Source: Nemertoderma westbladi (taxonomy: Eukaryota > Animalia > Xenacoelomorpha). From it: DNA of 64,000 nt. Positions within the stretch are counted from its first letter, which is position 1. Each line of letters starts with the position of its first letter. The position numbers and the translations under genes were made by a program. Location of the stretch: assembly GCA_032718475.1 (NCBI GenBank), contig JAUCBJ010006587.1, positions 65,640 to 129,639 of the forward strand, read 5' to 3'. The notes below the pieces were generated by a model. The model did no database searches and was not told the DNA's origin. It saw only the letters and a list, made by a program, of their open reading frames with translations. This document shows, piece by piece, positions 9,806 to 56,335 of the stretch.

Positions 9806-11789
9806 AAATATAAAAATAATTTTTGAACAACCTTAACCCAAATGGCAAATTGTCAAAAAATCGACCTATATTTTGACATCGAAAAAAAAGTGAATTTTTG
9901 AAAAATGAATTTTTGGTTCTAGTGATCACAAATGCGAAGCAATGACAAAATTTATTTTACTATTTGACAGACAATTTATTCAGACATCATCTAATATTTC
10001 AATTTTTATCATAAAATCAAGCTATCACAGTATCACCCACAATCCAGCAATCTGTTAAAGAAAAAAGTATAACTTGCTGTATCACAGTATCAAGTCACCT
10101 CAATGTAAGAAAAAATTGTAGGCCTACAGTATAGGCTGATAGGAGTATAGCCTATACAGCTATATAATATATATACCGTACTACAGTACTACTGTACTAT
10201 AAAAAATATATTCGAGCCTAGTACCAGTACGTACTAAATGACAGAATGAAATCATTGTGCCTAAGCTGCTTAGGCTTATGACAGTCAGACAGTATGAATG
10301 GAATGGAACAAAAAAATGGAATGAGTAAAAAAAAACATTAGAATTATGGATACATGACCGAACGTAGTCAGGATCGAATGTAACATAGTTATTAGGCCTA
10401 TGTATCGAACGTAACCGCAATTACTGAATTATGTTACATTGACAGATTGAATCCTATAACTATCAGACTTTATGTTACATTGACAGATTGAATCCTACAA
10501 CTATCAGACTATCTGACTATGTTACATTTGATCTACAAATTACTAAGCTCGAATGTAACATTGCCATTTAAAGGAACAGGTTACAGAGGCGTGTTGAGGG
10601 AACCAAAACAATAAACGAAAGTTAACACATGTTACAAGATTATGCAAGTTACCGGTACTTTTATTTAAACTGTTAAAGGAGCAGGTTACAGAGGCGTGTT
10701 GGGGAACCCAAACAATAAACGAAACTAAATAATAAATGGGGGGGGGGGGGGGGGGGGGGGGGGGGAGGCGGTTCTAAATTCTAAGGTATCTAGCAGCAGA
10801 GCAGTCTACAGTCTAGATTATATTCCAAAGTCGAAAAATAAAGCTGACGGTGGACGGGGGGGTGGGTTGGATAGGCCTAGATAAATACTGAAATATTGTC
10901 ATGTACTGAATAGGCCTACTGAAATAGTCAACAGACGATTTTTAGCAGCTTGTCTTCTTGTTGTATCGAAATAGTTCAGACTGTCAGAAATTAAAAAATC
11001 CGGCTCTCTCAGGCAGTCAGCAGGTCAGCCCAGCAGTAAGAAACAGATAAAAGTTGTCGAACTCGAAATATCATCATACTAAATCTTCGGCGTACGGCAG
11101 TACGGCGTACCTGTAAAAGAAACTGGCTGACTGGTACCGGTTGCCGGTACCGGCTGACCGGTACTACTGTACTACGTTAAAGTTTGGCGCGGAAGATACT
11201 ATATTTAGAAATTGTGGACACAAAATAAAATACTGTACAGAAATACTGTAGGTACCTACGGCTGTACGGCAGTACGGTACCGGTTGTTCCTATACCTGTA
11301 TACCAGTACTGCAGTATACAGGTATACCTGTATAAGTGTATACCTATGCTATAAGCAGTTACTGAGTTATGATACCGGCACACGGTACCGGTGGTATTCA
11401 GATTCAGTGCCTGGTACATCAGTTGATCGGTTTGACTGCCTAGACTAGCGCTTAGATGTTGAATCTACAACTCAGAAATCAGCCACTCAGGTAATAGGAA
11501 TAATAACCTCATTAAATATTAGCCAATTAGGAGACAACTGCTACACAGGCGTATTGAAAGAATTTTAAAATAAGCAGACTAATAGCTTGCTGCACGTTAT
11601 TTCAACAAAACGGGCAGTGCTAAAATGCACAAAGAGCCACACGGATCCAAAAATGACCATTACACTATGAAGCAATGAGGCACCAACCCACTCCGACACA
11701 GGAGATGTTGCACAGAGTTAAATTAATACCATCAAAGTTAATTCTGAGCACCTACAAATGTTAATGAAGGTAATAAAATGGTGTCGAAG

Positions 11790-13540
11790 CATGTCAGATA
11801 CTGTACAAACGGATCCAAAGCATGTCAGTATACTTTGCACACGGACCCAAAGGATGTCAGATACTTTGCACACGGATCCAAATGATGTCATATACTTTGT
11901 ACACGGACCCAATGGATGTCAGATACTTTGCACACGGACCCAAAGGATGTCAGATACTTATGAACACGGACCCAAAGGATCTCAGATACTTTGAACACGG
12001 ACCCAAATGATGTCAGATACTTTGAACACGGACCCAAAGGATGTCAGATACTTTGCACACGGACCCAAAGGATGTCAGATACTTTGCACACGGACCCAAA
12101 GGATGTCAGATACTTTGCACACGGACCCAAAGGATGTCAGATACCTTGAACACGGACACAAAGGATCTCAGATACTTTGAACACGGACCCAAAGGATGTC
12201 AGATACTTTGCACACAGACCCAAAGGATGTCAGATACCTTGAACACGGACCCAAAGGATCTCAGATGCTTTGAACACGGACCCAAAGGATGTCAGATTCT
12301 TGCACACGGACCCAAAGGATGGTCAGATACTTTGACACGGACCCAAGGGATGTCAGATACTTTGCACACGGACCAAAGGATGTCAGATTCTTGCACACGG
12401 ACCCAAAGGATGGTAGATACTTTTGACACGGACCCAAGGGATGTCAGATACTTTGCACACGGACCCAAAGGATGCGAGATTCTTTGAACACGGACCCAAA
12501 GGATCTCAGATACTTTGAACACGGACCCAAAGGATGCCAGATACTTTGCACACGGACCCAAATGTTGACAGATACTTTGCACACGGACCCAAAGGATGTC
12601 CGATAATTTGAACACGGACCCAAAGGATGGTAGATACTTTGACACGGACCCAAAGGATGTCAGATACTTTGCACACGGACCCAAAGGATGCCAGATACTT
12701 TGCACACGGACCCAAATGATGTCAGATACTTTGCACACGGACCCAAAGGATGTCCGATAATTTGAACACGGACCCAAAGGATGGTAGATACTTTGACACG
12801 GACCCAAAGGATGTCAGATACTTTGCACACGGACCCAAAGGATGGTAGATACTTTTGACACGGACCCAAGGGATGTCAGATACTTTGCACACGGACCCAA
12901 AGGATGCGAGATTCTTGAACACGGACCCAAAGGATCTCAGATACTTTGAACACGGACCCAAAGGATGTCAGATACTTTGCACACGGACCCAAATGTTGAC
13001 AGATACGTTGCACACGGACCCAAAGGATGTCCGATAATTTGAACACGGACCCAAAGGATGGTAGATACTTTTGACACGGACCCAAAGGATGTCAGATACC
13101 TTGAACACGGACCCAAAGGATCTCAGATGCGTTGCACACGGACCCAAAGGATGTCAGATTCTTGCACACGGACCCAAAGGATGGTAGATACTTTTGACAC
13201 GGACCCAAGGGATGTCAGATACTTTGCACAAGGACCCAAAGGATGCGAGATTCCTTGAACACGGACCCAAAGGATCTCAGATACTTTGAACACGGACCCA
13301 AAGGATGCCAGATACTTTGCACACGGACCCAAATGTTGACAGATACGTTGCACACGGACCCAAAGGATGTCAGATAATTTGAACACGGACCCAGAGGATG
13401 GTAGATACTTTTTACACGGACCCAAATGTTGGCAGATACGTTGAACTCGGAACCAAAGGATGTCAGATACCTTGAACACGGACCCAAAGGATGTCAGATA
13501 CATTGAACACGGACCCAAAGGATGTCAGATACCTTGATAC
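11790..13540. repeat. 31-bp minisatellite, consensus acacggacccaaaggatgtcagatactttgc, roughly 55 units
   Basis: Directly visible head-to-tail units without unique spacers. It generates the many repetitive ORFs in the track. Confidence 0.95.
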
Positions 13541-18850: not shown

Positions 18851-20002
18851 TGTAAAGGCTTTTGCGTAATTAGCCGGTTATTTTCCCCGTAAAGTACTCT
18901 GTAGTTGGTTTAACCGGCATAAAAGGCCGTGTCCTTACTGTATTGTTGTTTTAGAGGACATAAAAGCCATTTCTTCTGTATGTGTACTTTAGCGGACATG
19001 ATTAGCAATTCTATGACGCAATAAGCCGGATCCTCTTGAAACAGTGTAGATACCATGACGACGGCTAACAGCTGATATTGCCACGTAGAACATCTCTTTG
19101 TTCTTTGTTCTCTCTTTGATCGGTCGACCAATCAGAGCGTTTTTTGCCTCTGTGTTGGAGATGGTATATAGAAACTAGGGAAGTGAGTCAGTATGTGAAT
19201 TCTTCCACAGCCTACAACACCGGCGTGGAACCTACGTGTTTCAGTCTTTAGTTCAACATTAGTAGGCTTAATTATAGAACGTATATCCGTTATCTAATCT
19301 TATTAACTATCCATAACTTAATCATTCATACCTTAACATTACTGCTTTTGCTGTCGGCTATTCATTATATTTGTTGATGGAACATTATATTTGGAATACT
19401 GATAAACAATCAGACACCCCAATCTTCTTGATATACTAAAGGTTAGAGAGACCGGATACATATAACGATTGCGACTTACATTAAGTGGTTTGAAGTGAAT
19501 CTAATGCTATTTTATAGGCCCTACACGTATTGTCTGTTGTTCTCCTTATATGTGACTAAAATTAGTGAAGGTCGGCAGATTAGTGTGCAGCATTGTGCAG
19601 TATTGTGTATGATTGTGATTGATAACGAAGCATCTCCTAAAGAATGCGCCATATACGTGAATCTATAGCCATCCCGTTGTGTCTGGTTTAAGTCATAACT
19701 CTGTTTATATATTTAGAGCGCCACGTCCTAAAGGAACTGTTAATATTTCCCGAAAGTGAATAATATTTGTCAGAGATTATATATATTAAGATCAGTCGAA
19801 TAATACAGTAGGCCTATCCCGCAATACGATTAGGCTTCCGAATCTAGTCTCCTGGGTATATCCAGCGGGTGAATGATCGCGCATAGACTGGTTTCGGCTA
19901 ATGTAGTGTATCAAATATTTGTCGTAGGCTAAAGACTATCTATTATCTAGAAGACATCCTAATTTGGCAGGTTAAACTGCTAAAGGTCTGAAAGCGCGAA
20001 CA
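18851..20002 (+). repeat. 5' LTR of element A (1152 bp)
   Basis: Near-identical to 31475-32346 plus 44299-44578. Starts TGTAAAGG, ends GCGAACA. Confidence 0.95.
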
Positions 20003-20014
20003 ATAACGGATATA
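20003..20014 (+). promoter_or_regulatory. Non-tRNA primer-binding-site position of A (ATAACGGATATA)
   Basis: Immediately follows the LTR, has no TGG, and is the perfect complement of LTR 19282-19293. Repeated at 20072-20083 and 20139-20150. Confidence 0.75.
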
Positions 20015-21245
20015 AAGTTCGGATTGCAGGGTAGGCAATAAATACAGTTTAATATTGTTCTGGTAAGAACAATAACGGATATATGTCTAATTGCAGGGTA
20101 GGCAATAAATACAGTTTAATATTGTTCTGGTAAGAACAATAACGGATATAGCTTCTGTATTGCAGTAGGCAATAAAGCTGAAGTACCGGCAACCGGTACC
20201 CAGTAGGCCTGACTACCTAACCACCCAGACCGGTACCTACAGCAGTACAGGTATAGCAGTATTATTCGATTTGATAGTTATATACTGGTAGGCCTTAATA
20301 TTGAATCAGGGAGGGCCCGCCCTGGTTTTTTATTAAGATTTTACTTATTTCTGTCAAGTTTTATTTATTTGTAGGCCAATATTGAGCAGAAGGCGTGTAA
20401 GCCTGCTCAGATTGTACAGATAATTTGTAGGCTTGACTGTTGTCTAACTGTTGTTAAGTCTGATCGGATTGCAGTGTGTGTAGAGCATCTGTCTGATAAA
20501 GTGCTAGTTAGGAACGTAGGGGCTTCAAGTGCTGTGAGGTAAACCCCCTTTGAAAGAATAAGTCGTACTACTATGGTACGACTACTACTAGTCGTACTAC
20601 TAGGCACGTTGGTTCTGGTAGACCGCGGTAATTAACTTCTAGGTAGGAACACTCCGTGATACATAACGTAGTACTTATAGCGATACGGCTATAAGTCGTC
20701 AGACGGTGGTATTTTCCTATCTGGACAACGCAGTATATTTACTACTACTTATTATTTTCAAATACCGTAGTACCCTGTCCGTTGTAATAACCAGATATTC
20801 TAACCCTTTGTTAGGCTGGTTAGTAGACTTCTTGTAAAATTACCCTAAAAATTCGTATTTGTGTATTTGTAATTTTTTTTGTGTTTATTTAGAGATTGTA
20901 ATCTCAACCCGAATTGTACGTAATTTGTAATATTAAGTAACTTAGGTAAATTAGAATTATTTGTTTTAGTGTCCAACAAGTAGCACTTCATTGAGAGCGC
21001 ACAGCTTCTGTGTAGTGACTCCCCCCAGAAATAATAACATTTATTTCAAATATTGACAAAAACCCATTTTAACGGGTATATATATTATAAATCAACTTAA
21101 ACGATTTATAAAATAGTAGGCCTGCCATACAACAATTAGGTCTCAATATCAGTTGGACTACTGCTTAAATAACGGTAATAAAGTAAGTTAAAGTAACCAA
21201 GTAACCCTTAAAATTCAGAAATTCAATTATTCTAAAATAATTGAC

Positions 21246-21496: not shown

Positions 21497-21633
21497 TCTA
21501 ATATATTATATATATATCACGCTACACTGAGTAGCAGTATCGGTAATTAATTACTAGGCTAGCAGTTAATACTGAATTACTAGACTTGCTTAGACTGTAA
21601 TATAGCAGTAGGCATTCAACTGTGCAAACAAAC

Positions 21634-24075
21634 ATGTCTGATACTAAGCAGAACCTGTCAGACAGTTTATTAGATGTAACTATCTGCGACTCAGATAGGG
21701 GTGTAGAACCGTCTAGACCTAAGTTCAGTTCACCTCCCACTGTGAGGAAGGTCATCCCTCCTGTAGTAATTTCAGACCCTAGGCTAGTCCAACATCGTAG
21801 GTCTATCATAGGCACTCGAGCTCAGGTCAAGCGGGACCAAGAAGCAGCGGAACAGCAACAACTCGCGAGCCAAGAACTTATTTCTCAACGGTCCGACAGC
21901 TCCAGTAGTGAGGATACTGTAGAGCTGACACCCGAGCGCGGAGCAAAGATGACGGATGCGGTTTATTCAGATCCCCTACTCATCCTTCCTGCAGCCGTAC
22001 TCACTAGGTTATTGATTGCGGTGGAAGAACACCAGATCGATTGGGCGAGAAGTAAGCGATCGACTAAAGATAGTTATGCGGGATATACAAGGGAAGAACT
22101 GAAGTCTATTGTCGAGTCGCAATGGAACTTCCCCGGACCCGGACTCCCGTTTGATTTATCAGAAGCTGCCTGGGAAGATATACACAGGATGGGAGTAACC
22201 AAGGAAACCGTCGATCCAGCTGTGTGGAAGAGGTCCGCAGCCGGATACGTACAGGGATTCGTAAGCTCTATGGAGCGAGTAGAAAAACAACTGTTTCAAC
22301 AACCCCAAGGACCTCAAGAGCAGGGACAACTGCTTTATCAAGTTAGAGAAAGAATTCTACGAATCAGGCTAATCTTATCAGCCTTTGAGGAGGCTTCTAA
22401 AAGAAGACAAGACACGTCGTTGCAAGTTGCCGTAAAGACTTGGTTTCAACGGGTGAGCCTCCAAGTGCAGGGAACGACTCAGTGGAAAGCCCAACTGGAT
22501 GAGCGCTCAACCCATGGAGAATCAACAGACGCTACTTTTTCCCAAGTGGAAAGTGAAGCGACGGCAGAGAAGCCGCATAAGAGGGATGCCATTGACATCT
22601 ATCTGTCGGACTATCAACGTTTTGTAGGAGATGAAGAGTTGAGGAGAAGACTAGAGGGGCTTAGCCCTAATAGTGAAGGAGCCCAGCGTGTGTTGGACGC
22701 AATCGATGTGGATAGGTTAGCTGCGAACCAAGCTAAATTCAATGAAAGCATCCGCATCGCTAAGGTTCAAGAAGAACAAGTAAAGAAAAAACGTATAGAA
22801 GACAGAAAGATAGCAGCAGTGGCAGCAGCAGTGGCAGCGGCAGAAGCGGAAAGAAAGGCTGTAGAAGCGGAAAGAAAAGCAGCCGAAGTGGAAAGAAAAG
22901 CGGCAGCGGCAGAGGCAGAAGCGGAAAGAAAAGCAGCCGAAGTGGAAAGAAAAGCGGCAGAGGCAGTGGCAGAAGCAGAACGAAAGGCGTCTGAAGAGAC
23001 TGCCCAACTAGAGTTGGAAAATCTTCAAGAGAAGCAAGACAACTTTAATAAACAGTTAACAGCTAGTAATATGCAGATGATGAATCGATCTACTCCCAAA
23101 AGGCAAGGTTATACATCATCTGAGGAAGGCGATACCACAGATCAGGAAGGCGGAGGAAATCGATCTCGCCTAAGCAGACGTAAAAGAATGTCCCACCGTC
23201 AGAAATTGCCTGATTTGCCCCCAGCTGTTCGAAGGCAACTAAATAACACAAATTTAGGTAGTACAGAACCCACAGACCAAATAATTAAAATAGAAAGACT
23301 CCCTACTATAGTAGACGAGCCTGAAATAATTAGGCCTGTTCTTGAAATCACCCCTTCGGTGATAGAGACACCTGTACTCCCAGAACCTACCTTTAAATTC
23401 CCTTTACACAGCACCAAATTATCTGTGCCTAGAGGAACAGCCCCTGAAACAGTGTCGGTCCTGGACTCCGAGCGAAATATAAAGGATATATCGCCCGTAG
23501 TCCCTCGTCTGCCCGCTACGACGTTGGCGGATCCTGCTTCGGCGGTTGATTGGGTAGACGAGAGACGGCGGGGGATGGATATTCTCCTCGGAAAGATGGA
23601 GGAGAATCGAGTGCGCTCCTCCCAACAGGTCCGAGAGTTAGAAGGGACTGTTCAACAGTTAAAGGGAACCGTAAAGGAAAGTAGGTTAGAGTTGCAAGAA
23701 GTGCAGCAAAGTATCGCGCTAGAACGCGATAAATTAGTAAATTTACAAAAGGGTATACCACCACCCCCGGTAACAATGTGTCAACCTGTTAGGTCTGAAG
23801 TATCTCATGCGCAAGGTGTGGAGCCTACACGCATATATACTGCTAGCGAAGTAGAAACTCCTATAGTGAACCCTATTAAGGGTAATTATAGACCTGTTGA
23901 TAATGATATTCCCTATAGACCTGATCATAATCCGAGAAATTTATATACCGATAACTCGATATTAAATAACACGATGGCCCAAGAAAGTTTTACGCGTCAA
24001 ATGGCTAGAACCGAAGCCCGCCAAGCGGTAAAGGTGGGAGAGATAGTCAAGTTCAATGGAGATGAGATGAAATGA
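21634..24075 (+). CDS. gag: Element A Gag N-terminal part (coiled-coil, AEAERK repeats), truncated by LINE insertion
   Basis: Homologous to the N-terminal part of ORF 35188-38724. The stop is created at the insertion junction (TGG to TGA). Confidence 0.85.
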   Translation: MSDTKQNLSDSLLDVTICDSDRGVEPSRPKFSSPPTVRKVIPPVVISDPRLVQHRRSIIGTRAQVKRDQEAAEQQQLASQELISQRSDSSSSEDTVELTPERGAKMTDAVYSDPLLILPAAVLTRLLIAVEEHQIDWARSKRSTKDSYAGYTREELKSIVESQWNFPGPGLPFDLSEAAWEDIHRMGVTKETVDPAVWKRSAAGYVQGFVSSMERVEKQLFQQPQGPQEQGQLLYQVRERILRIRLILSAFEEASKRRQDTSLQVAVKTWFQRVSLQVQGTTQWKAQLDERSTHGESTDATFSQVESEATAEKPHKRDAIDIYLSDYQRFVGDEELRRRLEGLSPNSEGAQRVLDAIDVDRLAANQAKFNESIRIAKVQEEQVKKKRIEDRKIAAVAAAVAAAEAERKAVEAERKAAEVERKAAAAEAEAERKAAEVERKAAEAVAEAERKASEETAQLELENLQEKQDNFNKQLTASNMQMMNRSTPKRQGYTSSEEGDTTDQEGGGNRSRLSRRKRMSHRQKLPDLPPAVRRQLNNTNLGSTEPTDQIIKIERLPTIVDEPEIIRPVLEITPSVIETPVLPEPTFKFPLHSTKLSVPRGTAPETVSVLDSERNIKDISPVVPRLPATTLADPASAVDWVDERRRGMDILLGKMEENRVRSSQQVRELEGTVQQLKGTVKESRLELQEVQQSIALERDKLVNLQKGIPPPPVTMCQPVRSEVSHAQGVEPTRIYTASEVETPIVNPIKGNYRPVDNDIPYRPDHNPRNLYTDNSILNNTMAQESFTRQMARTEARQAVKVGEIVKFNGDEMK

Positions 24076-25999
24076 CTCAAACAGACTACAGCGGCCAAGA
24101 ATGCAGTTAAAGCTGCATCTAGGTCTCTGAACAGGCAGTACTCTGTTAATCTACAGGAGCTAATAAACCAACAGGTTGATGCCATCAATGATGCTGACGA
24201 CAGCAGGCAATCATCCCAGGCATGGAAATCGATCAATCTGCTTACTGGGCGGAAAAGCCAACCAACCACCAAGGTTAAGGCTGAATCACCAGCCGATCGC
24301 CTCAATGGTTGGAAAGCCCACTTTGAAAAGCTCCTCAATAATGACAGGGTATTGCCTGATAACTTTATAGAAGTAAAAGTGTCTGAGTCTGTACTCCCAG
24401 ATATTCCCATTGGCGATATCTCCTTTGCAGAAGTGAAGGCTGCTGCAAAGAGCATTAAGACCAATCGTGCCAGTGGAGTAGATGGTGTTCCCCCTGAGGT
24501 CTTTAAAATACCTGAGTGTCTAAAGCTCATCTATCCCATCATAGTAGACATGTACCGTACAACAAGAGTCCCACAAGAAATGAAAACAAATAAGTTGGTG
24601 CCAGTTCCCAAGAAGGGCAACCTAACACTCTATGGTTCTTTTCGGGGAATCTCATTGATCTCGATTGCTGCAAAACTATACAATAGAATTCTATTAAATC
24701 GCATCAGGGATCCCATTGAGAGACTGCTACGTGGAAATCAGAATGGGTTCCGTAAAGGTCGTGGGACCATGGAGCCCATTTTGGCACTTAGAAGGATAAT
24801 TGAAGAGTTATCAAAAAAGAAAGACAGGCATCTGGCTGTTATCTTTGTTGACTTCTTCAAGGCCTTTGATTCAGTCTCTCGCTCACGTATGTTCAGCATA
24901 CTTTCATTATATGGGATTCCTGATGAAATTATTGCAGCAATCAGATCAGTATACGATGGTTCGACAACATTTGTGTCTACTGTTGACGGTGACACAGAAC
25001 CATTTGAAGTGTTATGGGGCGTCCTCCAAGGAGACACACTTGCACCATTCTTGTTCATTATTGTGGTTGACTATGTTCTACGCATGTCCTTAGATCATCA
25101 TAATGATGATGGGGTGATGATAACTCCACCTACTGGCTCCAGAAGTCGAGGAAATCCTGCCAAGTACCTAACTGATCTAGACTTTGCTGATGACTTAGGA
25201 GTACTCTCAGAATCATTAGAGGGAGCCCAGCGGCTCCTCAGCTCATTAGAACATGCTGCTTCTAGTGTTGGTCTTTTTATTAACTCCAGAAAGACCAAAA
25301 TTCTGACAGTTAACTTTGAAAGTCCTCAGCAAGTCTCTGATCGGATGAGCATAAGCTCAAAGGATGGTATGCTTGAGCATGTGGACGACTTCTGTTACCT
25401 GGGATCATGGATCCGGAAGTCAGGTGAGGACCTTCGAATACGTAAGGGAAAGGCATGGGCAGCCTTGAATAGGCTTTCCAGGATTTGGAAGTCACCTAGA
25501 ATTAATCGGAAACTTAAGGTCCGATTATTTAGAGCAGCAGTAGTTCCAGTACTCCTCTACGGGAGTCCATGCTGGGCTCTAACTGCTGAGGACACCAAAT
25601 CTCTGGATGGCACATTCACAAGAATGCTACGCCGGGTACATTGTGTCAAGTACAATGCACACATCTCCAACCAGACACTATATAACATTGGAGGTGTCTC
25701 ATTGGTTCCCCCAAGCTTGACACTAGAACAAAATCGCCTCCGCTTTGCAGGACATTGCTTTCGCCGTGAGGACCAGCCAGTGCATAATCTTGTACTTTGG
25801 CAGCCTCATGGAGTGAATAAGCATGGTGGACAGCCCATGACTTTCTTGAGACGCATCTTAAAGGACACTGGCCTTAAAGATGCGGATGATCTAGCAAATG
25901 TCATGGGTGATAGGGAGTTGTGGCGGCGCAATTTTGTTGACAAGCCGGCACAGCATTCTTAAAAATGCAGCTGCAATGCAGCATGCCGATCCTAGTAGT
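24075..25999 (+). mobile_element. 5'-truncated RTE-clade non-LTR retrotransposon
   Basis: TSD AGATGAAATG (24065-24074, 26000-26009), short 3' UTR, (TAG)n tail. Confidence 0.92.
24076..25962 (+). CDS. LINE reverse transcriptase (endonuclease lost by 5' truncation)
   Basis: Motifs FRGISL, QNGFRKGR, FVDFFKAFDSV, GVLQGDTLAPFLF, LDFADD, YLGS. The frame is open from 24076, upstream of the track start at 24352. Confidence 0.92.
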   Translation, partial: LKQTTAAKNAVKAASRSLNRQYSVNLQELINQQVDAINDADDSRQSSQAWKSINLLTGRKSQPTTKVKAESPADRLNGWKAHFEKLLNNDRVLPDNFIEVKVSESVLPDIPIGDISFAEVKAAAKSIKTNRASGVDGVPPEVFKIPECLKLIYPIIVDMYRTTRVPQEMKTNKLVPVPKKGNLTLYGSFRGISLISIAAKLYNRILLNRIRDPIERLLRGNQNGFRKGRGTMEPILALRRIIEELSKKKDRHLAVIFVDFFKAFDSVSRSRMFSILSLYGIPDEIIAAIRSVYDGSTTFVSTVDGDTEPFEVLWGVLQGDTLAPFLFIIVVDYVLRMSLDHHNDDGVMITPPTGSRSRGNPAKYLTDLDFADDLGVLSESLEGAQRLLSSLEHAASSVGLFINSRKTKILTVNFESPQQVSDRMSISSKDGMLEHVDDFCYLGSWIRKSGEDLRIRKGKAWAALNRLSRIWKSPRINRKLKVRLFRAAVVPVLLYGSPCWALTAEDTKSLDGTFTRMLRRVHCVKYNAHISNQTLYNIGGVSLVPPSLTLEQNRLRFAGHCFRREDQPVHNLVLWQPHGVNKHGGQPMTFLRRILKDTGLKDADDLANVMGDRELWRRNFVDKPAQHS

Positions 26000-26001
26000 A
26001 G

Positions 26002-28248
26002 ATGAAATGGTTACCTTTTAATGAATATTACAAAGATAACATACAGAACTCTGTGCTATCTAATGGAGAGAAACTTAGATTCCTCATCGAGTGCTTGGAA
26101 GGATCTCCCAAGCTAATGGCGTTAAAGTTTATTGGACATCCAGACGGATTAAGACAAGTTTGGGATACACTAAACATCAGGTATGGTAATAGGAATAACA
26201 TAGCTAGGTATTTGTATGCAAAATTAATGGCGCCCCGAAAGTTTCTTAGCAGCGGGATTATAGAGTTTTCCGATGAGATTCAGGAGATCTGTAGACAATT
26301 AGATTGGCTAGGTAAGTCTCATGAATACCAGAATTCTATGGTTGTAGGAGCCTTAGCATCTACTTTGCCCAAGGGTGGAGTAGGTACACGCTGGGACAAG
26401 AAAGTGTTATATATGATGGAACAACAACGACGAGACCCTACCATGGCTGATCTCATGTCATTCTTAGATGGAGAAGTGAAATTACAGCTCCTAAGGCAGT
26501 CCAGAGAGAAGACACTGGAAAACAAGGTAAGTGAGAAACCCGTTTCTAGGAGAAGGGTAATACCAGTGTGTTATACCGACGACGGCGAAAGCCAGGCTTC
26601 TCAAGAGGAAGACAGCGGGAAAGACACTGAAAGATCTTACTATGACCACAAAGCGACTAAGGACGTAAGTAAATTCAAGTCTCGAACCAATGACAGGAGA
26701 GAACAGGTAAGAAAAACTCCTCCTACGTCTCCTAAGAGAATTCAAGTAAGAAAGCCCGAAGAAAGAACGAGTGTGCACAACGTTACTCAAAGTAAGGTAA
26801 GTAACATCAAACCAAAATGTGTGCTGTGCGACGGGCCCCACCGTTTGAATATGTGTGATAAATTCCTAAAGAAATCATTAAAGGATAGACGTGAAGTCAT
26901 GTGGGATAAGCGGTTGTGTTATAATTGCCTCAGACGAGGACACCAACGGCGAACCTGTTACTCCGACTCAAGGTGTGCAAAGTGCGGCGCAAAACATCAT
27001 ATCTTGTTGCACACGGAATTCGAACGAAACAGCCCGAGTCAGGTAAGTGAGTCCGAACTACATGTCCAATTCAGTGATGTGAACGACACTGACCAATATT
27101 CTGAGATGGAAGGATTCTATACGGACGAATTCTCCGACGAAAACGAATCCTGTTACCTGACAAATACCGCAGTGTATCGAGCACTTACGTATGAAAAGGA
27201 CACCGACAGCGAGCTCCCCCTAACTACTTCTGACCGACAACCATCTTGGAAAGCACCAACTTCCAATGTAGGAATCCGAGAATTTCCTGTAGTACAGTTA
27301 AGGGTCCACGGACCTACAAGGAGTTATATAGTGAACGCCCTCCTTGACTCCGGTAGCACAGGAACATTCATCGACAAAGAACTAGCCGAAGACATCTTTG
27401 CTGGACAACCCAAGTTCCGAACTAAGCTAAACATGTCAGGAATTATGCAGGTTTGGAAATCTACCGTAATAGCGGATTATTATGTAGGCGCGTTGTCCAC
27501 CCCCCAGGATGAACTAGGAGAACACAGCATAAGGTCAGTAAAAATGGTAGCGATAAAGAACTTCGCGACCAGCCAAGTGGAACCTTATAACTGGGATGAG
27601 GACGATTTCACCCAGCAGCTTGAAATACCTAGATTCAACACCGATTACCCTGGAGTCCAAATACTCATCGGTCAAAATGCGCATGAAGCGCTCGAGACAT
27701 TGGAGAAACGGCCTGCTCAACCGCAACCACTACAAGTCTATGCGGGAAGAACTAGAGTAGGTTGGTACTTTACTGGCCCTTCTCGTAGAACTCTTATGGA
27801 AAGATTACCAAAAGAACAGGTATATCAATTAAGTGAACGGGAAGTGGAGAGCAGTGAAGTTGACGACCCAACTGAGGGAACACCATACTCCTCAGATAAT
27901 GACGACATCAACTCCAATGTAGATCAATGGAGACATTGCCCCGAGACGATCAATCTAGCCGACATCGCTTCCAGAGGAGCAACTCCTCAAGAACTTACAG
28001 ATACTCCAGACCGGTTAGGTGGACCCGACTTCCTAAGTAAAGAAGATGAATGGCCTCCTCATCTTACCCCGGTGAAGATTAGACAGGCCAAGGGAGCGGA
28101 GAAAGTAACACAACCACTCAATCGCCCAGCTGGTCGTTTATGTTTACTGGAAAGAGACCGAAAACTGTCCGGAAACTATGGAAGGCAAGATACTCTTCCC
28201 ACGACCACCTCCCTAATCCAACAAATATCTAGGGACTCCATAACGTAA
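26002..28248 (+). CDS. Element A Gag core, zinc knuckles and aspartic protease, fused in frame to remnants of the pol C-terminus; RT, RNase H and integrase deleted
   Basis: Capsid-like region (KLRFLIECLEG), CVLCDGPH, CYNCLRRGH, CAKCGAKHHILLH, ALLDSGST. It jumps from SSDNDDI to DQWRHCP relative to element C. Confidence 0.9.
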   Translation: MKWLPFNEYYKDNIQNSVLSNGEKLRFLIECLEGSPKLMALKFIGHPDGLRQVWDTLNIRYGNRNNIARYLYAKLMAPRKFLSSGIIEFSDEIQEICRQLDWLGKSHEYQNSMVVGALASTLPKGGVGTRWDKKVLYMMEQQRRDPTMADLMSFLDGEVKLQLLRQSREKTLENKVSEKPVSRRRVIPVCYTDDGESQASQEEDSGKDTERSYYDHKATKDVSKFKSRTNDRREQVRKTPPTSPKRIQVRKPEERTSVHNVTQSKVSNIKPKCVLCDGPHRLNMCDKFLKKSLKDRREVMWDKRLCYNCLRRGHQRRTCYSDSRCAKCGAKHHILLHTEFERNSPSQVSESELHVQFSDVNDTDQYSEMEGFYTDEFSDENESCYLTNTAVYRALTYEKDTDSELPLTTSDRQPSWKAPTSNVGIREFPVVQLRVHGPTRSYIVNALLDSGSTGTFIDKELAEDIFAGQPKFRTKLNMSGIMQVWKSTVIADYYVGALSTPQDELGEHSIRSVKMVAIKNFATSQVEPYNWDEDDFTQQLEIPRFNTDYPGVQILIGQNAHEALETLEKRPAQPQPLQVYAGRTRVGWYFTGPSRRTLMERLPKEQVYQLSEREVESSEVDDPTEGTPYSSDNDDINSNVDQWRHCPETINLADIASRGATPQELTDTPDRLGGPDFLSKEDEWPPHLTPVKIRQAKGAEKVTQPLNRPAGRLCLLERDRKLSGNYGRQDTLPTTTSLIQQISRDSIT

Positions 28249-29873: not shown

Positions 29874-31396
29874 ATGACTGAGTTGATAGAAGATGATCTC
29901 GGTATTAGGGAGCGATATACTCTACCTTTACAAGCGTTTGTCGATAGCTTGATACGCGGCGACGCTGATCCAACTACTACGGAGGATGATGGTCGTTATA
30001 TCTAACCGCCAATGTCCCGGAAGCAACTTGCGCGTGGGTTGGACTGTAGAAAATTCACCGCTCGCTATACACATCGTAATGGTACGTATATGGACTTCTT
30101 AACTACTGGTCATCCTATCGACCTACACGATACGAACGATATAGACACCAAAAGGGAAATTGTTTTATTTAAATATCATACCCAGCGGAAGCGGAACGAT
30201 AAACTGAGACTCGAACACGAAAATTCTATTCGAAACCGACTCGAAAGTGCAGATGGTGAAGAGCCGGATAAACGCAGCGACTTCACCAAATACCTGGAAT
30301 TCTTGAGAGAAACCTATCTCGATATTACCAGTCAACAGAATCTAGAAACTCGATATCCTCAAGGTATACATCATGACCGCATGGTAGAACTCAAACGGCT
30401 CTATTCCACTATGATGTATCTTACCGCCGATCGACCGCTACCTGTTGTACCGGATAGTTTCGAACGGATGGAGGAATATTGTAAGCTGGAGAAAGATCAC
30501 TCGAGTTTCCCCTACAAGACGTGCGTTTTTGGTATTTTTGCGATGAATGCCCAAGACCCAACCAACAAACGGAAAGACATAAACATCCGCGGAGACGTTG
30601 CTTTAAACACGGTTTTACTCGCTATATTTACGGGAGTTTCGAGCGAAACTTGTTCGATGTATCACCTACGCTCGTTCGACTCAGACGATCCTTAAATAAA
30701 CCAATGATCAGAGTTTCGGAATACTCGATCAGATCTTCTCATTCCCTAGTGAGACCTCAGACTCTTGATCCTATTAGTATGACGGATCCTCCCGAGCTGT
30801 ACTCACTACTCAAAGATCTAGTGTTACCTGAACAATTAGTCGGTGGCACCCCGGTTGTGGGCTTCCTAGATATTAGCCCATCCTACCTAGCCGGATTGGG
30901 ACGCGGACATTTAATATCGCCGCTTAACCCTTACCATCGTCCCGGCTTAACACGATATAACCTGTCACCAAAGTGGCGGAGAGCGTTGTACCAAATGAGT
31001 TAGACGCTATTCTACAAAGATCGGAAAAGGAACTTACGCTTGTTCAGATAAACGTAAATTGCACTAGCAAGTCCAAGCGGTAAACAAAGTAAATTTATCT
31101 CAGTTCGATCGGGAAATCCAGAATCTCTAAGAAGTTATCGAACTTGGACGACCCTATTCTCTGCGAGAGTTTTTGGATGAACGTATCCAGCTACGAGCGG
31201 AGGAAAATCAGCTCGAGGAGAAGCATATCGAAACGGCAGATACCTCGCCCATAATCCTACACCTTCTGATGCAATCATATTGCACCCTTCACCCCGGAGT
31301 TATGGCCCTCCTAGTAAAGTGGCTCGCCCCAAAGAGAAAAGGACTCTTGCTAGCCTCAAAAAACTGCGTAAACGCCGTCCTCGTAAGAAAGACTAA
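29874..31396 (+). pseudogene. Disrupted extra ORF of element A between pol and the 3' LTR (unknown function, non-env)
   Basis: ATG 29874 is homologous to C ORF 50061. Premature TAA at 30003, then fragments 30012-30695 and 30521-31003. Ends KKLRKRRPRKKD* as in C. Confidence 0.7.
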
Positions 31397-31465: not shown

Positions 31466-31474
31466 TGGGAGCGG
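31466..31474 (+). promoter_or_regulatory. Polypurine-tract position TGGGAGCGG of element A
   Basis: Directly precedes the 3' LTR. Same in B (43117-43125) and C (48822-48830, minus strand). Confidence 0.8.
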
Positions 31475-32346
31475 TGTAAAGGCTTTTGCGTAATTAGCCG
31501 GTTATTTTCCCCGTAAAGTACTCTGTAGTTGGTTTAACCGGCATAAAAGGCCGTGTCCTTACTGTATTGTTGTTTTAGAGGACATAAAAGCCATTTCTTC
31601 TGTATGTGTACTTTAGCGGACATGATTAGCAATTCTATGACGCAATAAGCCGGATCCTCTTGAAACAGTGTAGATACCATGACGACGGCTAACAGCTGAT
31701 ATTGCCACGTAGAACATCTCTTTGTTCTTTGTTCTCTCTTTGATCGGTCGACCAATCAGAGCGTTTTTTGCCTCTGTGTTGGAGATGGTATATAGAAACT
31801 AGGGAAGTGAGTCAGTATGTGAATTCTTCCACAGCCTACAACACCGGCGTGGAACCTACGTGTTTCAGTCTTTAGTTCAACATTAGTAGGCTTAATTATA
31901 GAACGTATATCCGTTATCTAATCTTATTAACTATCCATAACTTAATCATTCATACCTTAACATTACTGCTTTTGCTGTCGGCTATTCATTATATTTGTTG
32001 ATGGAACATTATATTTGGAATACTGATAAACAATCAGACACCCCAATCTTCTTGATATACTAAAGGTTAGAGAGACCGGATACATATAACGATTGCGACT
32101 TACATTAAGTGGTTTGAAGTGAATCTAATGCTATTTTATAGGCCCTACACGTATTGTCTGTTGTTCTCCTTATATGTGACTAAAATTAGTGAAGGTCGGC
32201 AGATTAGTGTGCAGCATTGTGCAGTATTGTGTATGATTGTGATTGATAACGAAGCATCTCCTAAAGAATGCGCCATATACGTGAATCTATAGCCATCCCG
32301 TTGTGTCTGGTTTAAGTCATAACTCTGTTTATATATTTAGAGCGCC
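31475..32346 (+). repeat. 3' LTR of A, left part (split by element B)
   Basis: Matches 18851-19722; 872 + 280 bp = 1152 bp. Confidence 0.95.
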
Positions 32347-33514
32347 TGTAAAAGCTTTTGCGTAATTAGCCGGTTATTATCCCCGTAAAGTACTCTGTGG
32401 TTGGTTTACCAGGCATAAAAAGGCCGTGTCCTTGCTGTACTGGTGTTTTAGAGGACATAAAAGCCATTTCTTCTGTATTTGTACTTTAGAGGACATAATC
32501 CGCAATTTCGGGACGCAATAAGCTCGATACTCTTGAAAACAGTGTCGCTACCATGACGACGGCTAACAGCTGATATTGCCACGTCGACATTTCTTTGTTT
32601 CTTTGTTCTCTCGTTGTTCGGTCGACCAATCAGAGCGTTTTTTGTCTCTGTGTTGGAGGTGGATACAGAAACTCAGGAATTCAGTGTTATGTTTTTGCCC
32701 AGAGCCTAAGAACACCGGCTTTTGGCACCTCCGTGTTTCAGTCTTTAGTCTTACATTAGTAGGCTTAATTATAGAACGTATATCTGTTATCGAGTTACCT
32801 TATCAATGCAATTCAATGCTTACTAAACATATCATGCATATCTTACTTAACATTACTGCTTTTGCTGTCGGTTATTCATTATATTTGTTGATGGAAGATT
32901 ATATTTGGAATACTGATCAATAGTCAGACACCCAACCTTCTTGATATACTAAAGGTTAGAGAGACCGGTTACAGATAAACGATTGCGACCTATGTTAAGT
33001 GGTTTGAAGTGAATCTAATGCTATTTTATAGGCCCTACATGTATTGTCTGTTATTCTCTTTGTATGTGACTAAAATTAGTGAAGATCGGCAGATTGGTGT
33101 GCAGCATTGTGCAGCATTGTGTATGATTGTGACTGATAACAAAGCATCTCCTAAAGAATGCGCCATATACGTGAATCTATAGCCATCTCATTGTGTCTGG
33201 TTTAAGTCATAACTCTGTTTACATATTTAGAGCGCCACGTCCTAAAGGAACTGTTAATATTTCCCGAAAGTGAATAATATTTGTCAGAGATTATATATTA
33301 CGATCAGTCGAATAATACAGTAGGCTTACACCATCAATCATTAAGCTTCCGAATTCAGTCTCCCGGGTATATCCAGCGGGTGAATGATTGCGCATAGACT
33401 GGCTTCGGCTAATGTAGTGTATCAAATACTCGTCATAGGCTAAAGACTATATATCATCTAAAAGACATCCTAATTTGGCAGGTTAAACTGTCAAAGGTCT
33501 TAAAAGCGCAAACA
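32347..33514 (+). repeat. 5' LTR of B (1168 bp)
   Basis: Near-identical to 43126-44293; only a few transitions seen by eye. Confidence 0.95.
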
Positions 33515-35187
33515 ATAACAGATATTGCTTCTGGATTGCGGCGTAAGCAATCAAGTCTAAAGTACCGGTACCGGTCGAACGGTAACCTGTACTGCTGTAA
33601 CCAGTAGGCCTGACTGCCTGATCATCCGAACCGGTACTCCGATCAAGTGCTAGTTGGGAACGTAGGGGCTTCAAGTGCTGTGAGGTAAACCCCCTGTGAA
33701 AGAATAAGTCGTACTACTGGGTTAGAACGCATACTAACTAATCATTTCGGAGTCTGCATATACCGTAGTTTGTTTAGCCTTGATAGTAGCCTGTCAGTAT
33801 TTGGTCTGCATTTTGTTTGAGTAGTTTGTACGCGTAGCGTAATATTTATTATTCAGAGTTTATGCTATTATTCGCAACATTCATTCCCCAAGTTTATTCC
33901 TACAGTAATTGTGTATGTTATACATACCGTTATAGTTAAACTAACCCCGGTACTACATCAGGGCTGCTCGGCGTAGGTAAAGACTGGAGATTTTGTGCTT
34001 TGGTCACTCCGGCAGATACCATGGTTCTTTTAGCTGTTCAAGTATTTTTAACTACTAATTATTTGTTGTACAAGTACTTGTACCTAATTTAGGGTTTAGT
34101 GTACAGTGCTTTCCGAAAGCAATTAGTGTGTAGGCAGTATATTTGTGTTGTAAAGTGGTTAATAGGCACGTTGGTTCTGGTAGACCGCGGTAATTAATCT
34201 CTAGGTAGGAACACTCCGTGATACATAACGTAGTACCTATAGCGATACGGTTATAGGTCGTCAGGCGGTGGTATTTTCCTATCTGGACAACGCAGTATAT
34301 TTACTACTACTTATTATTTTCAAATACCGTAGTAACCTGTCCGTTGTAATAACCAGATATACTAACCCTTTGTTAGGCTGGTTTGTAGATTTCTTGTAAA
34401 ATTACCCTAAAAATTCGTATTTGTGTATTTGTAATTAAATTTTTGTGTTTATTTAGAGATTGTAATCTCAACCCGAATTGTACGTAATTTGTAGTATTAA
34501 GTAACTTAGGTAAATTATAATTATTTGTTTTAGTGTCCAACAAGTAGCACTCCACTGAGAGCACACAGCTTCTGTGTAGTGACTCCCCCAGAAATAATAA
34601 CATTTATTTCAAATATTGACAAAAACCCATTTTAACGGGTATATATATTATAAATCAACTCAAACGATTTATAAATAGTAGGCCTGCCATACAACAATTA
34701 GGTCTCAATATCAGTTGGACTACTGCTTAAATAACGGTAATAAAGTAAGTTAAAGTAACCAAGTAACCCTTAAAATTCCGAAATTCAATTATTCTAAAAT
34801 AATTGATATACCGGTATTTACAATAGGCTTATTATCTTTATTTTATAAATATAGGCTGAAATTATACCGGTATTCTGTAATTAATTCTAGTCTGTAATTA
34901 TACTTATATATATACATTATAAGTGTAAGCTGTATACCGGTATTCAAGATAGGCCTATTATATATATAAACTTAGGCTGAAATCATACCGGTATTCTGTA
35001 ATTAATTCTAGTTACTAATAATACTTATATATACCATAAGCATACCGGTATTCTAATATTATATATATATCACGCTACACTGAGTAGCAGTATCGGTAAT
35101 TAATTACTAGGCTAGCAGTTAATACTGAATTACTAGACTTGCTTTAACTGTATTTATAGCCGTAGGCATTCAACTGTGTAAACAAAC

Positions 35188-38100
35188 ATGTCTGACACAA
35201 CCCAATCACTGTCGGATAGTCTCCTAGATAGTGTTAGAATGACTGTTAGACAGTGTCTTAAAAGGATCAGTGACCCAGATCCAAGTATAGAACATCCTAG
35301 ATCCAAGTCTAAGTCCCCTCCTACTGTAAGAAAGGCCATCCCTACAGTAGTAGTGTCAGACCCTAGACTAGTAGAACATCGTAGGTCTATCATAGGCACT
35401 CAAGCTCAGGTCAAGCGGGACCAAGAAGCAGCGGAACAGCAACAACCCGCGAGCCAAGAATTTATTTCTCAGCGGCCCGACAGCTCCAGTAGCGAGGATA
35501 CTGTAGAGCTGACACCCGAGCGCGGAGCAAGGATGACGGATGCGGTTTATTCGGATCCCCTTCTCATCCTTCCTGCAGCCGTACTCACTAGGTTATTGAT
35601 TGCGGTGGAAGAACACCAGATCCATTGGGCGAGAAGTAAGCGATCAACTAAAGATAGTTATGCGGGATACACAAGGGAAGAACTGAAGTCTATGGTCGAG
35701 TCGCAATGGAACTTCCCCGGACCCGGACTCCCGTTTGATTTATCAGAAGCTGCCTGGGAAGACATACACCGGATGGGAGTAGCCAAGGAAACCATCGATC
35801 CAGCTGTGTGGAAGAGGTCCGCAGCCGGATACGCACAGGGATTCTTCAGCTCTATGGAGCGAGTAAAAGAACAACTGTTTCAACAACCTCAAGGACCTCA
35901 AGAGCAGGGACAACTGCTTTATCAAGTTAGAGAGAGAATTCTGCGAATTAGGCTAATCTTATCGGCCTTTGAGGAGGCTTCTAAAAGAAGACAAGACACG
36001 TCGTTGCAAGTTGCCGTAAAGACTTGGTTTCAACGGGTGAGTCTCCAAGTTCAAGGAACGGCTCAGTGGAAAGCTCAGCTGGAGGAGCGCTCAACCCATG
36101 GAGAATCAACAGACGCTACTTTTTCCCAAGTGGAAAGTGAAGCGACGGCAGAGAACCCGCATAAGAGGGATGCCATTGATATCTATCTGTCAGACTATCA
36201 ACGTTTCTTAGGTGATGAAGAGTTGAGGAGAAGGTTGGATGGACTTAACCCTAATAGTGAAGGAGCACAGCGTGTGCTTGACGCCATCGACGTGGATAGG
36301 TTAGCGGCGAACCACGCTAAATTCGATGAACAACTCCGCATCGCTAGAGACCAAGAAGAAAAGGTGAAGAAAAAAGGCATAGAAGACAGAAAGAAAGCAG
36401 CAGTAGCAGCTGCAGAAGCCGAAAGGAAAGCAGCCGAAGAGGAAAGTAAAGCAGCCGAAATGGAAAGAAAAGCGGCAGCGGCAGAGGCAGAAGCGAAAAG
36501 AAAGGCGGCAGCGGCAGAGGCAGAAGCGAAAAGAAAAGCAGCCGAAATGGAAAGAAAAGCGGCAATGGCAGCGGCAGAAGCGGAGCGGATAGCGGCTGAA
36601 GAGATCGCCCAATTAGAATTGGAAAATATTCAGGAGAATCAAGACTGCATAAATAAACAGTTAACAGCTAGTAATATGCAGATGATGAATCGATCTACTC
36701 CCAAAAGACAGGGATATACATCATCTGAGGAAGGCGATACCACCGATACTGAAGGCAAAGGAAATAGATCTCACCTAAGCAGACGTAAAAGAACATCCCA
36801 CCGTCAGAAATTGCCTGATTTGCCTCCAGCTGTTAGAAGGCAACTAAATAACACCAACTTAGGTAGTACAGAACCCACAGACCAAATAATTACAATAGAG
36901 AGACTCCCTACTATAGTAGATGAGCCTGAAATAATTAGGCCTGTTCCCGAAGCTACCCTTTCGGTGGTAGAGACACCTGTACTCCCTGAACCTACCTCTA
37001 AATTCCCTTTGCACAGTACTAAGCTACCTGTGCCCAGCAGAACAGCCCATGAGACAGTTCATGCCCTGGACTCCGAGCGAAATATTCATGATTTGTCGCC
37101 CGTTGTCCCTCGTCCGCCCGCTACAACGTTGGCGAATCCCGCTTCGGCGGTCGAATGGGTGGATGAGAGACGACGGGGGATGGATCTCCTGCTCGGACAG
37201 ATGCAGGAGACCGTTCAGCAATTCAAGGGCACAGTAAGGGAAAGTAGGCTAGAGTTGCAAGAAGTGCAGCAAAGTATCGCGCTAGAACGCGATAAATTAG
37301 TAAATACACAAAAGGGTATACCACCACCCCCTGTAACAATGTGTCAACCTGTTAGGTCTGAAGTATCTCATGCGCAAGGTGTGGAGCCTACACGCATCTA
37401 TACTGCTAGCGAAGTAGAAACTCCTATAGTGAACCCTATTAAGGGTAATTATAGACCTGTTGATAATGATATTCCCTATAGACCGGATCATAATCTGAGA
37501 AATTTATATACCGATAACTCGATATTAAATAACACGATGGCCCAAGAAAGTTTTACGCGTCAAATGGCTAGAACCGAAGCCTGGCAAGCGGTAAAGGTGG
37601 GAGAGATCGTCAAGTTCAATGGAGATGAGATGAAATGGTTACCTTTTAATGAATATTACAAAGATAACATACAGAACTCTGTACTATCTAATGGAGAGAA
37701 ACTTAGATTCCTCATCGAGTGCTTGGAAGGATCTCCCAAGTTAATGGCGTTAAAGTTTATTGGACATCCAGACGGATTAAGACAAGTTTGGGATACACTA
37801 AACATCAGGTATGGTAATAGGAATAACATAGCTAGGTATTTGTATGCAAAATTAATGGTGCCCCGAAAGTTTCTTAGCAGCGGGATTATAGAGTTTTCCG
37901 ATGAGATTCAGGAGATCTGTAGACAATTAGATTGGCTAGGTAAGTCTCATGTATACCAGAATTCTATGGTTGTAGGAGCCTTAGCATCTACTTTGCCCAA
38001 GGGTGGAGTAGGTACACGCTGGGACAAGAAAGTGTTATATATGATGGAACAACAACGACGAGACCCTACCATGGCTGATCTCATGTCATTCTTAGATGGA

Positions 38101-38724
38101 GAAGTGAAATTACAGCTCCTAAGGCAGTCCAGAGAGAAGACACTGGAAAACAAGGTAAGTGAGAAACCCGTTTCTAGGAGAAGGGTAACACCAGTGTGTT
38201 ATACAGACGACGGCGAAAGCCAGACTTCTCAAGGAGAGGATAGCGGGAAAGACACTGAAAGATCTTATTATGTCAATAAAACGCCTAAAGACCAGGTAAG
38301 TAAATTCAAGTCTCGAACCAATGACAGGAGAGAACAGGTAAGAAAAACTCCTCCTACGTCTCCCAAGAGAATTCAGGTGAGAAAGCCCGAGGAAAGAACG
38401 AACGTGCACCACACAGCACATGTTAAAGTAAGTAACATCAAGCCCAAATGTGTGCTGTGCGATGGGCCCCACCGTTTAAGTGCGTGTGATGAATTCCTGA
38501 GGAAATCACTAAAGGACAGACGTGAAGTCATGTGGGATAAGCGGTTGTGTTATAATTGCCTCAGACGAGGACACCAACGGCGAACCTGTTACTCCGACGT
38601 AAGGTGTGCAAAGTGCGGCGCGAAACATCATATCTTGTTGCACACGGAATTCGAACGAAACAGCCCGAGTCAGGTAAGTGAGTCCGAACTACATGTCCAA
38701 TTCAGTGATGTGAACGACACTTGA
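35188..38724 (+). CDS. gag: Element B Gag (1178 aa) with three zinc knuckles
   Basis: Long ORF. Ends at a 1-bp insertion (gacacttgacc vs gacactgacc in A) that separates it from the protease. Confidence 0.9.
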   Translation: MSDTTQSLSDSLLDSVRMTVRQCLKRISDPDPSIEHPRSKSKSPPTVRKAIPTVVVSDPRLVEHRRSIIGTQAQVKRDQEAAEQQQPASQEFISQRPDSSSSEDTVELTPERGARMTDAVYSDPLLILPAAVLTRLLIAVEEHQIHWARSKRSTKDSYAGYTREELKSMVESQWNFPGPGLPFDLSEAAWEDIHRMGVAKETIDPAVWKRSAAGYAQGFFSSMERVKEQLFQQPQGPQEQGQLLYQVRERILRIRLILSAFEEASKRRQDTSLQVAVKTWFQRVSLQVQGTAQWKAQLEERSTHGESTDATFSQVESEATAENPHKRDAIDIYLSDYQRFLGDEELRRRLDGLNPNSEGAQRVLDAIDVDRLAANHAKFDEQLRIARDQEEKVKKKGIEDRKKAAVAAAEAERKAAEEESKAAEMERKAAAAEAEAKRKAAAAEAEAKRKAAEMERKAAMAAAEAERIAAEEIAQLELENIQENQDCINKQLTASNMQMMNRSTPKRQGYTSSEEGDTTDTEGKGNRSHLSRRKRTSHRQKLPDLPPAVRRQLNNTNLGSTEPTDQIITIERLPTIVDEPEIIRPVPEATLSVVETPVLPEPTSKFPLHSTKLPVPSRTAHETVHALDSERNIHDLSPVVPRPPATTLANPASAVEWVDERRRGMDLLLGQMQETVQQFKGTVRESRLELQEVQQSIALERDKLVNTQKGIPPPPVTMCQPVRSEVSHAQGVEPTRIYTASEVETPIVNPIKGNYRPVDNDIPYRPDHNLRNLYTDNSILNNTMAQESFTRQMARTEAWQAVKVGEIVKFNGDEMKWLPFNEYYKDNIQNSVLSNGEKLRFLIECLEGSPKLMALKFIGHPDGLRQVWDTLNIRYGNRNNIARYLYAKLMVPRKFLSSGIIEFSDEIQEICRQLDWLGKSHVYQNSMVVGALASTLPKGGVGTRWDKKVLYMMEQQRRDPTMADLMSFLDGEVKLQLLRQSREKTLENKVSEKPVSRRRVTPVCYTDDGESQTSQGEDSGKDTERSYYVNKTPKDQVSKFKSRTNDRREQVRKTPPTSPKRIQVRKPEERTNVHHTAHVKVSNIKPKCVLCDGPHRLSACDEFLRKSLKDRREVMWDKRLCYNCLRRGHQRRTCYSDVRCAKCGAKHHILLHTEFERNSPSQVSESELHVQFSDVNDT

Positions 38725-38737
38725 CCAATATTCTGAG

Positions 38738-43047: not shown

Positions 43048-43125
43048 CTGTTTAGAGTATCTTTATATTTTAGAAACTGTGATTTGTTATATTTTATAGA
43101 CTTAAATCCCATTTTCTGGGAGCGG

Positions 43126-56307: not shown

Positions 56308-56335
56308 CTCTAACCTACTTTCCCTTACTGTTCCC

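Follow-up and report, generated by a model that had tools for sequence, protein, structure and literature searches.

Priming of reverse transcription by an element's own RNA is described in PMC6317226 and PMC4600332 as demonstrated for Tf1 and predicted for the Tf1/sushi, Tcn1 and TAR elements. Tf1 and Tf2 of Schizosaccharomyces pombe, Tj1 and the Tf1/sushi elements carry no tRNA site and have, adjoining the 5' LTR, a primer-binding site (PBS) that is the complement of 11 nt of their own LTR RNA (PMC7175516, PMC4600332 and 10.1101/2022.12.06.519325). Outside the yeast model, self-priming has been predicted from sequence for Tcn1 and for the TAR lineage of plant Ty1/copia elements, including Houba and Osr-1 (PMC6317226), so that a repeated origin of self-priming has precedent; these belong to chromovirus and plant copia lineages, in contrast to the BEL/Pao elements described here. 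The ICTV description of the Belpaoviridae (Semotivirus) comprises a three-knuckle Gag, the order protease-RT-RNase H-integrase, LTRs of up to 1.2 kb and a purine tract, in line with what is preserved of our elements, but also a PBS of 18 nt for a tRNA of the host, tRNA-Arg or tRNA-Gly (PMC8742986), which our elements do not have. A literature search yielded no report of self-priming in BEL/Pao elements; the slash in the name limits such searching, and Repbase, GyDB, the full ICTV report, supplements and subscription papers lay outside its scope. The terms PBS and tRNA are absent from the available text of two BEL/Pao surveys (PMC554778, PMC3118150), and the accessible parts of PMC3601003 and PMC6934838 contribute nothing further on BEL/Pao priming.

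Here we describe three elements, A, B and C, in which the sequence directly following the 5' LTR lacks TGG and is exactly complementary to an 11-mer of the same LTR. The complement is in register with the LTR edge, shows two matched changes among the elements, and recurs as a signature in relatives. Judged from these sequence features, A, B and C quite probably start reverse transcription with their own RNA, using the contiguous 11-mer as primer; by analogy with Tf1, the site would be transcribed, cut and used for priming. The feature itself is real, and we regard it as the probable sign of a known mechanism in a superfamily for which the reference description omits it. The elements differ from the Tf1 group in belonging to the BEL/Pao superfamily, in having a loop of >700 nt between primer and PBS, and in their tandem PBS copies.

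Layout and coding content of the elements

One LTR family has three copies (A, B and C) in the window, i.e. the whole 64,000-nt stretch of DNA that was analysed, and a fourth LTR (D) begins there. LTR limits of A, B and C were set by TG...CA ends and target duplications.

18851-44578, + strand: element A, interrupted by the nested element B
32347-44293, + strand: element B, nested inside the 3' LTR of A
60678-47705, - strand: element C
18851-20002, + strand: 5' LTR of A, 1152 bp, TG...CA, target duplication CACTC
31475-32346, + strand: 3' LTR of A, first part; the rest lies at 44299-44578, beyond nested B
31467-31474, + strand: purine-rich tract ahead of the 3' LTR of A
32347-33514, + strand: 5' LTR of B, 1168 bp, target duplication GCGCC
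43126-44293, + strand: 3' LTR of B, with a primer-site copy at 43559-43569
59562-60678, - strand: 5' LTR of C, 1117 bp, target duplication AACTA
47705-48821, - strand: 3' LTR of C, with a primer-site copy at 48460-48450
63182-64000, + strand: LTR D, diverged and cut by the window end; its PBS position falls past the window

The LTRs of all three elements begin with TG and end with CA, the target duplications measure 5 bp, and a purine-rich tract precedes the 3' LTR. The paired LTRs are 99.3-100% alike within each element, indicating that A, B and C are recent; LTR divergence among the three amounts to 10.5-15.5%. LTR D has a homologous primer site (63677-63688) whose sequence differs from those of A, B and C.

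A, B and C are BEL/Pao elements (Belpaoviridae) according to their predicted proteins, on which the assignment rests. This identity, part of the original prediction, was borne out by matches of C to DUF1759 (E 2e-11) and Peptidase_A17 (E 5e-33).

21601-28248, + strand: gag/protease remains of A, with DUF1759 and an inserted LINE-type RT
52129-58030, - strand: gag-pol of C in two frames; Gag has three zinc knuckles, and protease, RT and RNase H are encoded as well
52132-51833, - strand: integrase tail of C (DUF5641), the sole integrase remnant, in the expected place after RNase H

The protein reading of C includes LLDSGS and three zinc knuckles, corresponding to the triple Cys-His box described in PMC554778. 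Its best 120 homologues are Pao-type polyproteins with the same domains and 38-43% identity, the named ones being from marine invertebrates. No chromodomain was seen in these BEL/Pao elements. Membership in the Tf1/sushi group (Ty3/gypsy chromoviruses) was rejected on account of the BEL/Pao domains; the likeness lies only in the proposed working. A lacks the integrase core as well as RT and the greater part of RNase H; the deletion covering RT and this part of RNase H is shared with B. As none of the three elements is coding-complete, each would need a helper supplying RT and RNase H.

Between pol and the 3' LTR, A, B and C contain extra ORFs of 150-230 aa (30006-31003, +; 41793-42601, +; 50076-48900, -) that had no Pfam match above the cut-off. 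The LINE-type RT insertion in A spans about 23607-25999 and includes an ORF (24076-25962) with RVT_1 and DUF6451; a second RT fragment occurs in the window at 60975-61871.

The PBS and its complement within the LTR

The sites concerned are as follows.

19283-19293, + strand: putative self-primer site of A, with a 12th pair at 19282; 3' LTR copy at 31907-31917
20003-20013, + strand: PBS position of A, no TGG; same-variant copies at 20072-20082 and 20139-20149
32780-32790, + strand: putative primer site of B
33515-33525, + strand: PBS position of B, single copy
60317-60307, - strand: putative primer site of C
59551-59561, - strand: PBS position of C; same-variant copies at 59493-59483 and 59424-59414

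It had been claimed that these elements have no TGG-type PBS and that the sequence in its place is an 11-12 nt reverse complement of a site inside the same LTR, with pairing that stops at the LTR edge. No TGG primer site was found after the 5' LTR in any of the three elements, nor was any other primer site seen there; without TGG, the 18-nt PBS for a host tRNA 3' end that characterizes the Belpaoviridae is absent from all three. Taken as its reverse complement, 20003-20014 of A is identical to 19282-19293 over 12 nt; the corresponding pairs are 33515-33525 and 32780-32790 in B (11 nt) and, on the minus strand, 59561-59551 and 60317-60307 in C (11 nt), confirming all coordinates. The register at the LTR edge held as well: each PBS begins at the first base past the terminal CA, and in none of the three elements does Watson-Crick pairing continue back into the LTR (0 nt). 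The complement is located at LTR offset 433, 434 and 362 in A, B and C, respectively, and is the sole complement of 9-11 nt in each LTR. Dinucleotide shuffles of the LTRs contained the complement in 20, 36 and 26 cases per 20,000 (A, B and C), odds that are not independent since the elements are related.

Two PBS positions vary among A, B and C, position 6 (G/A/A) and position 8 (A/A/T), and the LTR site matches both, so that the two compensatory changes proposed originally were found as described. The probability of two matched changes by chance is about 0.002, a rough value derived from the LTR divergence of 10.5-15.5% and based on three related elements and two positions. Pairing energies with the element's own PBS were -12.0, -10.5 and -10.1 kcal/mol, and those of the six cross pairs ranged from -2.4 to -9.8 kcal/mol. 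A and C each have three tandem PBS copies, all carrying the element's own variant. In the leaders, the first two tandem units have been homogenised within each element while the third has orthologous flanks, and it is therefore unit 3 alone that lends weight. Two further leader junctions with a different fifth PBS base came from contigs of two public DNA runs, and leaders with fewer repeat units also occur among public-run contigs. B-type and C-type variants of the primer site appear as loose ends of contigs aligned at that site.

The occurrence of three PBS variants in the window and of the two further junctions argues against a host primer, which would reset the PBS in every cycle and should hold it constant. 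We therefore consider it very unlikely that a host RNA (a tRNA half, a fragment or another small RNA) primes and that the LTR match is secondary. A short stretch in B and C presumably resembles the anticodon loop of tRNA-Asn; however, this resemblance is broken in A, and the lack of TGG precludes a mature tRNA 3' end. No tRNA genes were found in the window, and no Rfam families, ribozymes included, so that no alternative cutter was seen there. Precedents for a host RNA are the half-tRNA priming known in copia lineages (PMC6317226) and the ICTV listing of Belpaoviridae as tRNA-primed (PMC8742986).

The complementarity might also have a cause at the DNA level, either a one-off inverted copy generated by template switching and kept uniform by conversion, or two protein-binding sites in opposite orientations. 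The homogenised leader units 1 and 2 show that conversion-like processes operate here, the 11-mer of C is nearly palindromic, and some 11-mer variants have what we take to be a resemblance to a Myb-type motif. However, an 11-bp tract is short for conversion and a binding site needs no base-for-base match, which renders such a cause highly improbable. A reading of the 11-mer in terms of a U12 intron was dropped, as C does not fit the consensus.

Self-priming by the contiguous 11-mer would involve the following steps. The transcript would include the 11-mer, starting at or upstream of the site, and the LTR 11-mer would pair with the PBS just past the 5' LTR, taking the place of a tRNA. Helper-supplied RT/RNase H would then cut at the 3' edge of the 11-mer, and the freed 3'-OH would prime into U5, perhaps aided by a U5 helix adjacent to the PBS. 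A 5' tail on the primer would be tolerated, so that the start need not coincide with the 11-mer. When the primer is copied in plus-strand synthesis, the PBS would be overwritten, which would force the two sites to covary and leave each subfamily free to drift to its own primer.

RNA start, U5 structure and folding of the leader

Further features of the LTR are given with the coordinates of A.

19128-19132, + strand: CCAAT box, conserved in all three elements
19294-19336, + strand: G-poor, highly variable tract directly after the primer site
19442-19517, + strand: possible LTR intron of 76 nt; all three elements conserve its donor-like and acceptor-like sites
19874-20002, + strand: predicted U5 structure, in which 19874-19889 pairs with 19985-20002, abutting the PBS
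19963-19984, + strand: predicted, conserved 8-bp hairpin

The CCAAT box is located 154, 154 and 87 nt upstream of the 11-mer in A, B and C, respectively. No TATA box is conserved across the three elements, a match being present in A only. With the CCAAT box upstream and no conserved TATA box, an RNA start at the 11-mer itself, as in Tf1, is unsupported. These promoter motifs are ambiguous. A start upstream of the primer site, as envisaged in the earlier caveat, would not contradict self-priming, since a single cut at the duplex's 3' edge would suffice. No AATAAA was found in the LTRs of A, B and C, leaving R undefined in these LTRs, and this counts against self-priming.

The 45 nt after the primer site contain 0, 4 and 3 G residues in A, B and C, compared to an LTR average of 20%, and at LTR 463-486 variation affects 34 of the 40 columns of the alignment. 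Contig depth on the LTR of A fell from about 94,000 to 4,000 past the primer site in run X1, and runs X2, X3 and X5 displayed a similar drop, about twentyfold after 19295. Thus, conservation across the family ends at the predicted cut. The junction of the possible 76-nt intron (19442-19517) does not fit the PBS; introns of this length are common in the relatives described below.

A duplex of downstream LTR sequence beside the PBS forms part of the pretzel described for Tf1 (10.1101/2022.12.06.519325), and the predicted U5 helix has a comparable position. Only two of the pretzel's three duplexes find support in A, B and C; the leader-side (third) one was not found at a position common to these elements and did not consistently outperform shuffles. 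The U5 helix includes a compensatory pair (19878:19998, C-G to U-A in B), the only such pair among 39 predicted in the U5 region; another of the 39 is broken in a single sequence. Compared to shuffles, the U5 helix alone performed modestly (12, 52 and 23 of 300), and a helix upstream of the primer was no better than shuffles (394, 280 and 741 of 2000). The predicted probability of the primer-PBS helix ranged from 0.95 to 0.00 depending on the folding window. With 200 nt of leader, the primers of A and C preferred the third PBS copy (0.68-0.86, as against 0.0 for the first), and the helix of B scored 0.04 or less. Despite this folding preference, it is the first copy that marks the boundary according to the LTR ends. 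The loop between primer and PBS measures 709-745 nt in A, B and C and 45-219 nt in relatives. Taken as a model prediction, the inconsistent folding of the whole leader speaks mildly against self-priming.

Long 5' leaders of LTR elements are structured, and the pairing could be real but structural or regulatory (packaging, dimer formation or a translation switch), with priming by another route. The predicted helix competes with local hairpins, and selection on any helix would also produce covariation. We nevertheless consider a solely structural role unlikely: no alternative primer site could be seen beyond the LTR, and the helix lines up with the end of the LTR, the point at which minus-strand synthesis has to start.

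Self-complementarity in relatives from other animals

A total of 145 BEL/Pao loci were obtained from host contigs in genome and metagenome collections. Twenty-six of these had a whole LTR and a readable 5' LTR end and were tested; the others had no usable repeat pair or unclear ends, or were duplicates of a tested element. A self-complement of 10-15 nt was present in 13 of 14 relatives without TGG. Self-complements of at least 10 nt were found in none of the 12 TGG elements and in none of 466 mismatched LTR-PBS pairs. The allowed offset had been widened from 0-3 to 0-5 after L084 and L007 were seen, and the null was calculated on the wider range. In 12 of the 14 relatives without TGG (L005, L006, L087, L025, L084, L092, L085, L156, L057, L168, L047 and L082), the complement exists only across the junction of a GT-AG LTR intron of 71-451 nt, whereas it is contiguous in L007, as in A, B and C. 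The remaining one, L002, has 8 nt of exact complement, or 10 pairs allowing a mismatch. L005/L006 and L087/L025 are close kin, so that about 11 independent families are represented; two changes are likewise matched between the sister families L005 and L006. Eleven of the 12 split cases have a poly(A) signal after the primer site, as expected if R starts there.

The relatives with a split complement resemble A, B and C in clade and in the position and length of the self-complement, and differ from them and from L007 in the canonical intron that divides it. With 13 of 14 elements without TGG matching their own LTR, the relatives strengthen the case for self-priming, the best reading of A, B and C. 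As the relatives' mutually unrelated PBS sequences each match their own LTR, and most do so only after splicing, the alternatives outlined above become less likely. A host RNA would not account for these individual matches. A purely structural helix is disfavoured by the primer-like length of the complement in 13 relatives and by its absence from 12 of 12 TGG elements. A DNA-level cause is disfavoured by the 12 relatives in which the complement arises only after intron removal, i.e. in RNA. The split-primer pattern is arguably more novel than the contiguous case in the window.

The predominance of split complements (12 of 14) raises the question of whether A, B and C, too, use a spliced primer, with the GT in the 11-mer as donor and, 33 nt short of the end of the LTR, an acceptor-like site. 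The four bases after this acceptor-like site equal those of the unspliced site, the junction would yield a complement of 11, 10 and 10 nt in A, B and C at offset 1, and the loop would shrink from about 720 to about 30 nt. Furthermore, conservation stops about six bases past the GT, resembling a donor footprint. However, the donor is poor, matching GTRAGT at 3 of 6 positions in A, B and C, compared to 5-6 of 6 in the 12 split relatives. The strict filter itself requires a good donor; unfiltered searches chose the same junctions in the relatives, with one tie. The strict search identified no junction of at least 10 nt in A, B and C. In addition, the conserved 8-bp hairpin accounts for the conservation of the acceptor-like bases, and the unspliced site has one pair more and stops exactly at the LTR edge. 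On balance, a spliced primer in A, B and C appears decidedly improbable, and the contiguous 11-mer is preferred.

An RT-RNase H tree of 19 rows placed C with the self-complementary relatives, apart from five TGG elements (SH-aLRT 100). C sits on a long branch, and a TGG element, L115, falls inside the same clade; monophyly of the self-complementary elements without L115 was neither shown nor rejected (p-AU 0.085). L115 has a TGG-type PBS at 406-425 in an otherwise self-complementary clade, and tRNA priming was presumably either retained or regained in this element. The PBS of L002 (6170-6190), without TGG, has an inner stretch in common with the TGG-type PBS of L162, possibly a relic of a tRNA site. 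From these data we lean towards the view that a large BEL/Pao clade of aquatic animals may have dropped tRNA priming in favour of self-made RNA primers, mostly put together when the host splices out an LTR intron. The family of A, B and C would then be a form on a long branch that does not depend on splicing; its primer and PBS would rewrite one another and be free to drift from one helper-dependent subfamily to the next.

If these elements do prime themselves, self-primed reverse transcription would extend to a third LTR superfamily, one listed as tRNA-primed, and BEL/Pao elements without a recognisable PBS would be accounted for. Such elements would evade control by tRNA fragments and would be missed by annotation tools based on tRNA sites. 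The natural primer variants of A, B and C are ready matched and mismatched substrates for studies of BEL/Pao RNase H recognition, and the occurrence of contiguous and intron-split primers within one clade makes the origin of self-priming testable.

The family-specific pattern had no matches in metagenome contigs, and no relatives were found on viral contigs. Four prokaryote genome bins (G001, G002, G006 and G007) hold eukaryote host contigs with whole BEL/Pao elements, i.e. contamination. Elsewhere in the window, a RING/TRIM-like single-ORF protein (15994-13724, -) had no database homologue at E 0.001. A long C2H2 zinc-finger ORF is located at 7564-4169 (-), and a tandem array of about 56 units of 31 bp extends from 11787 to 13537.
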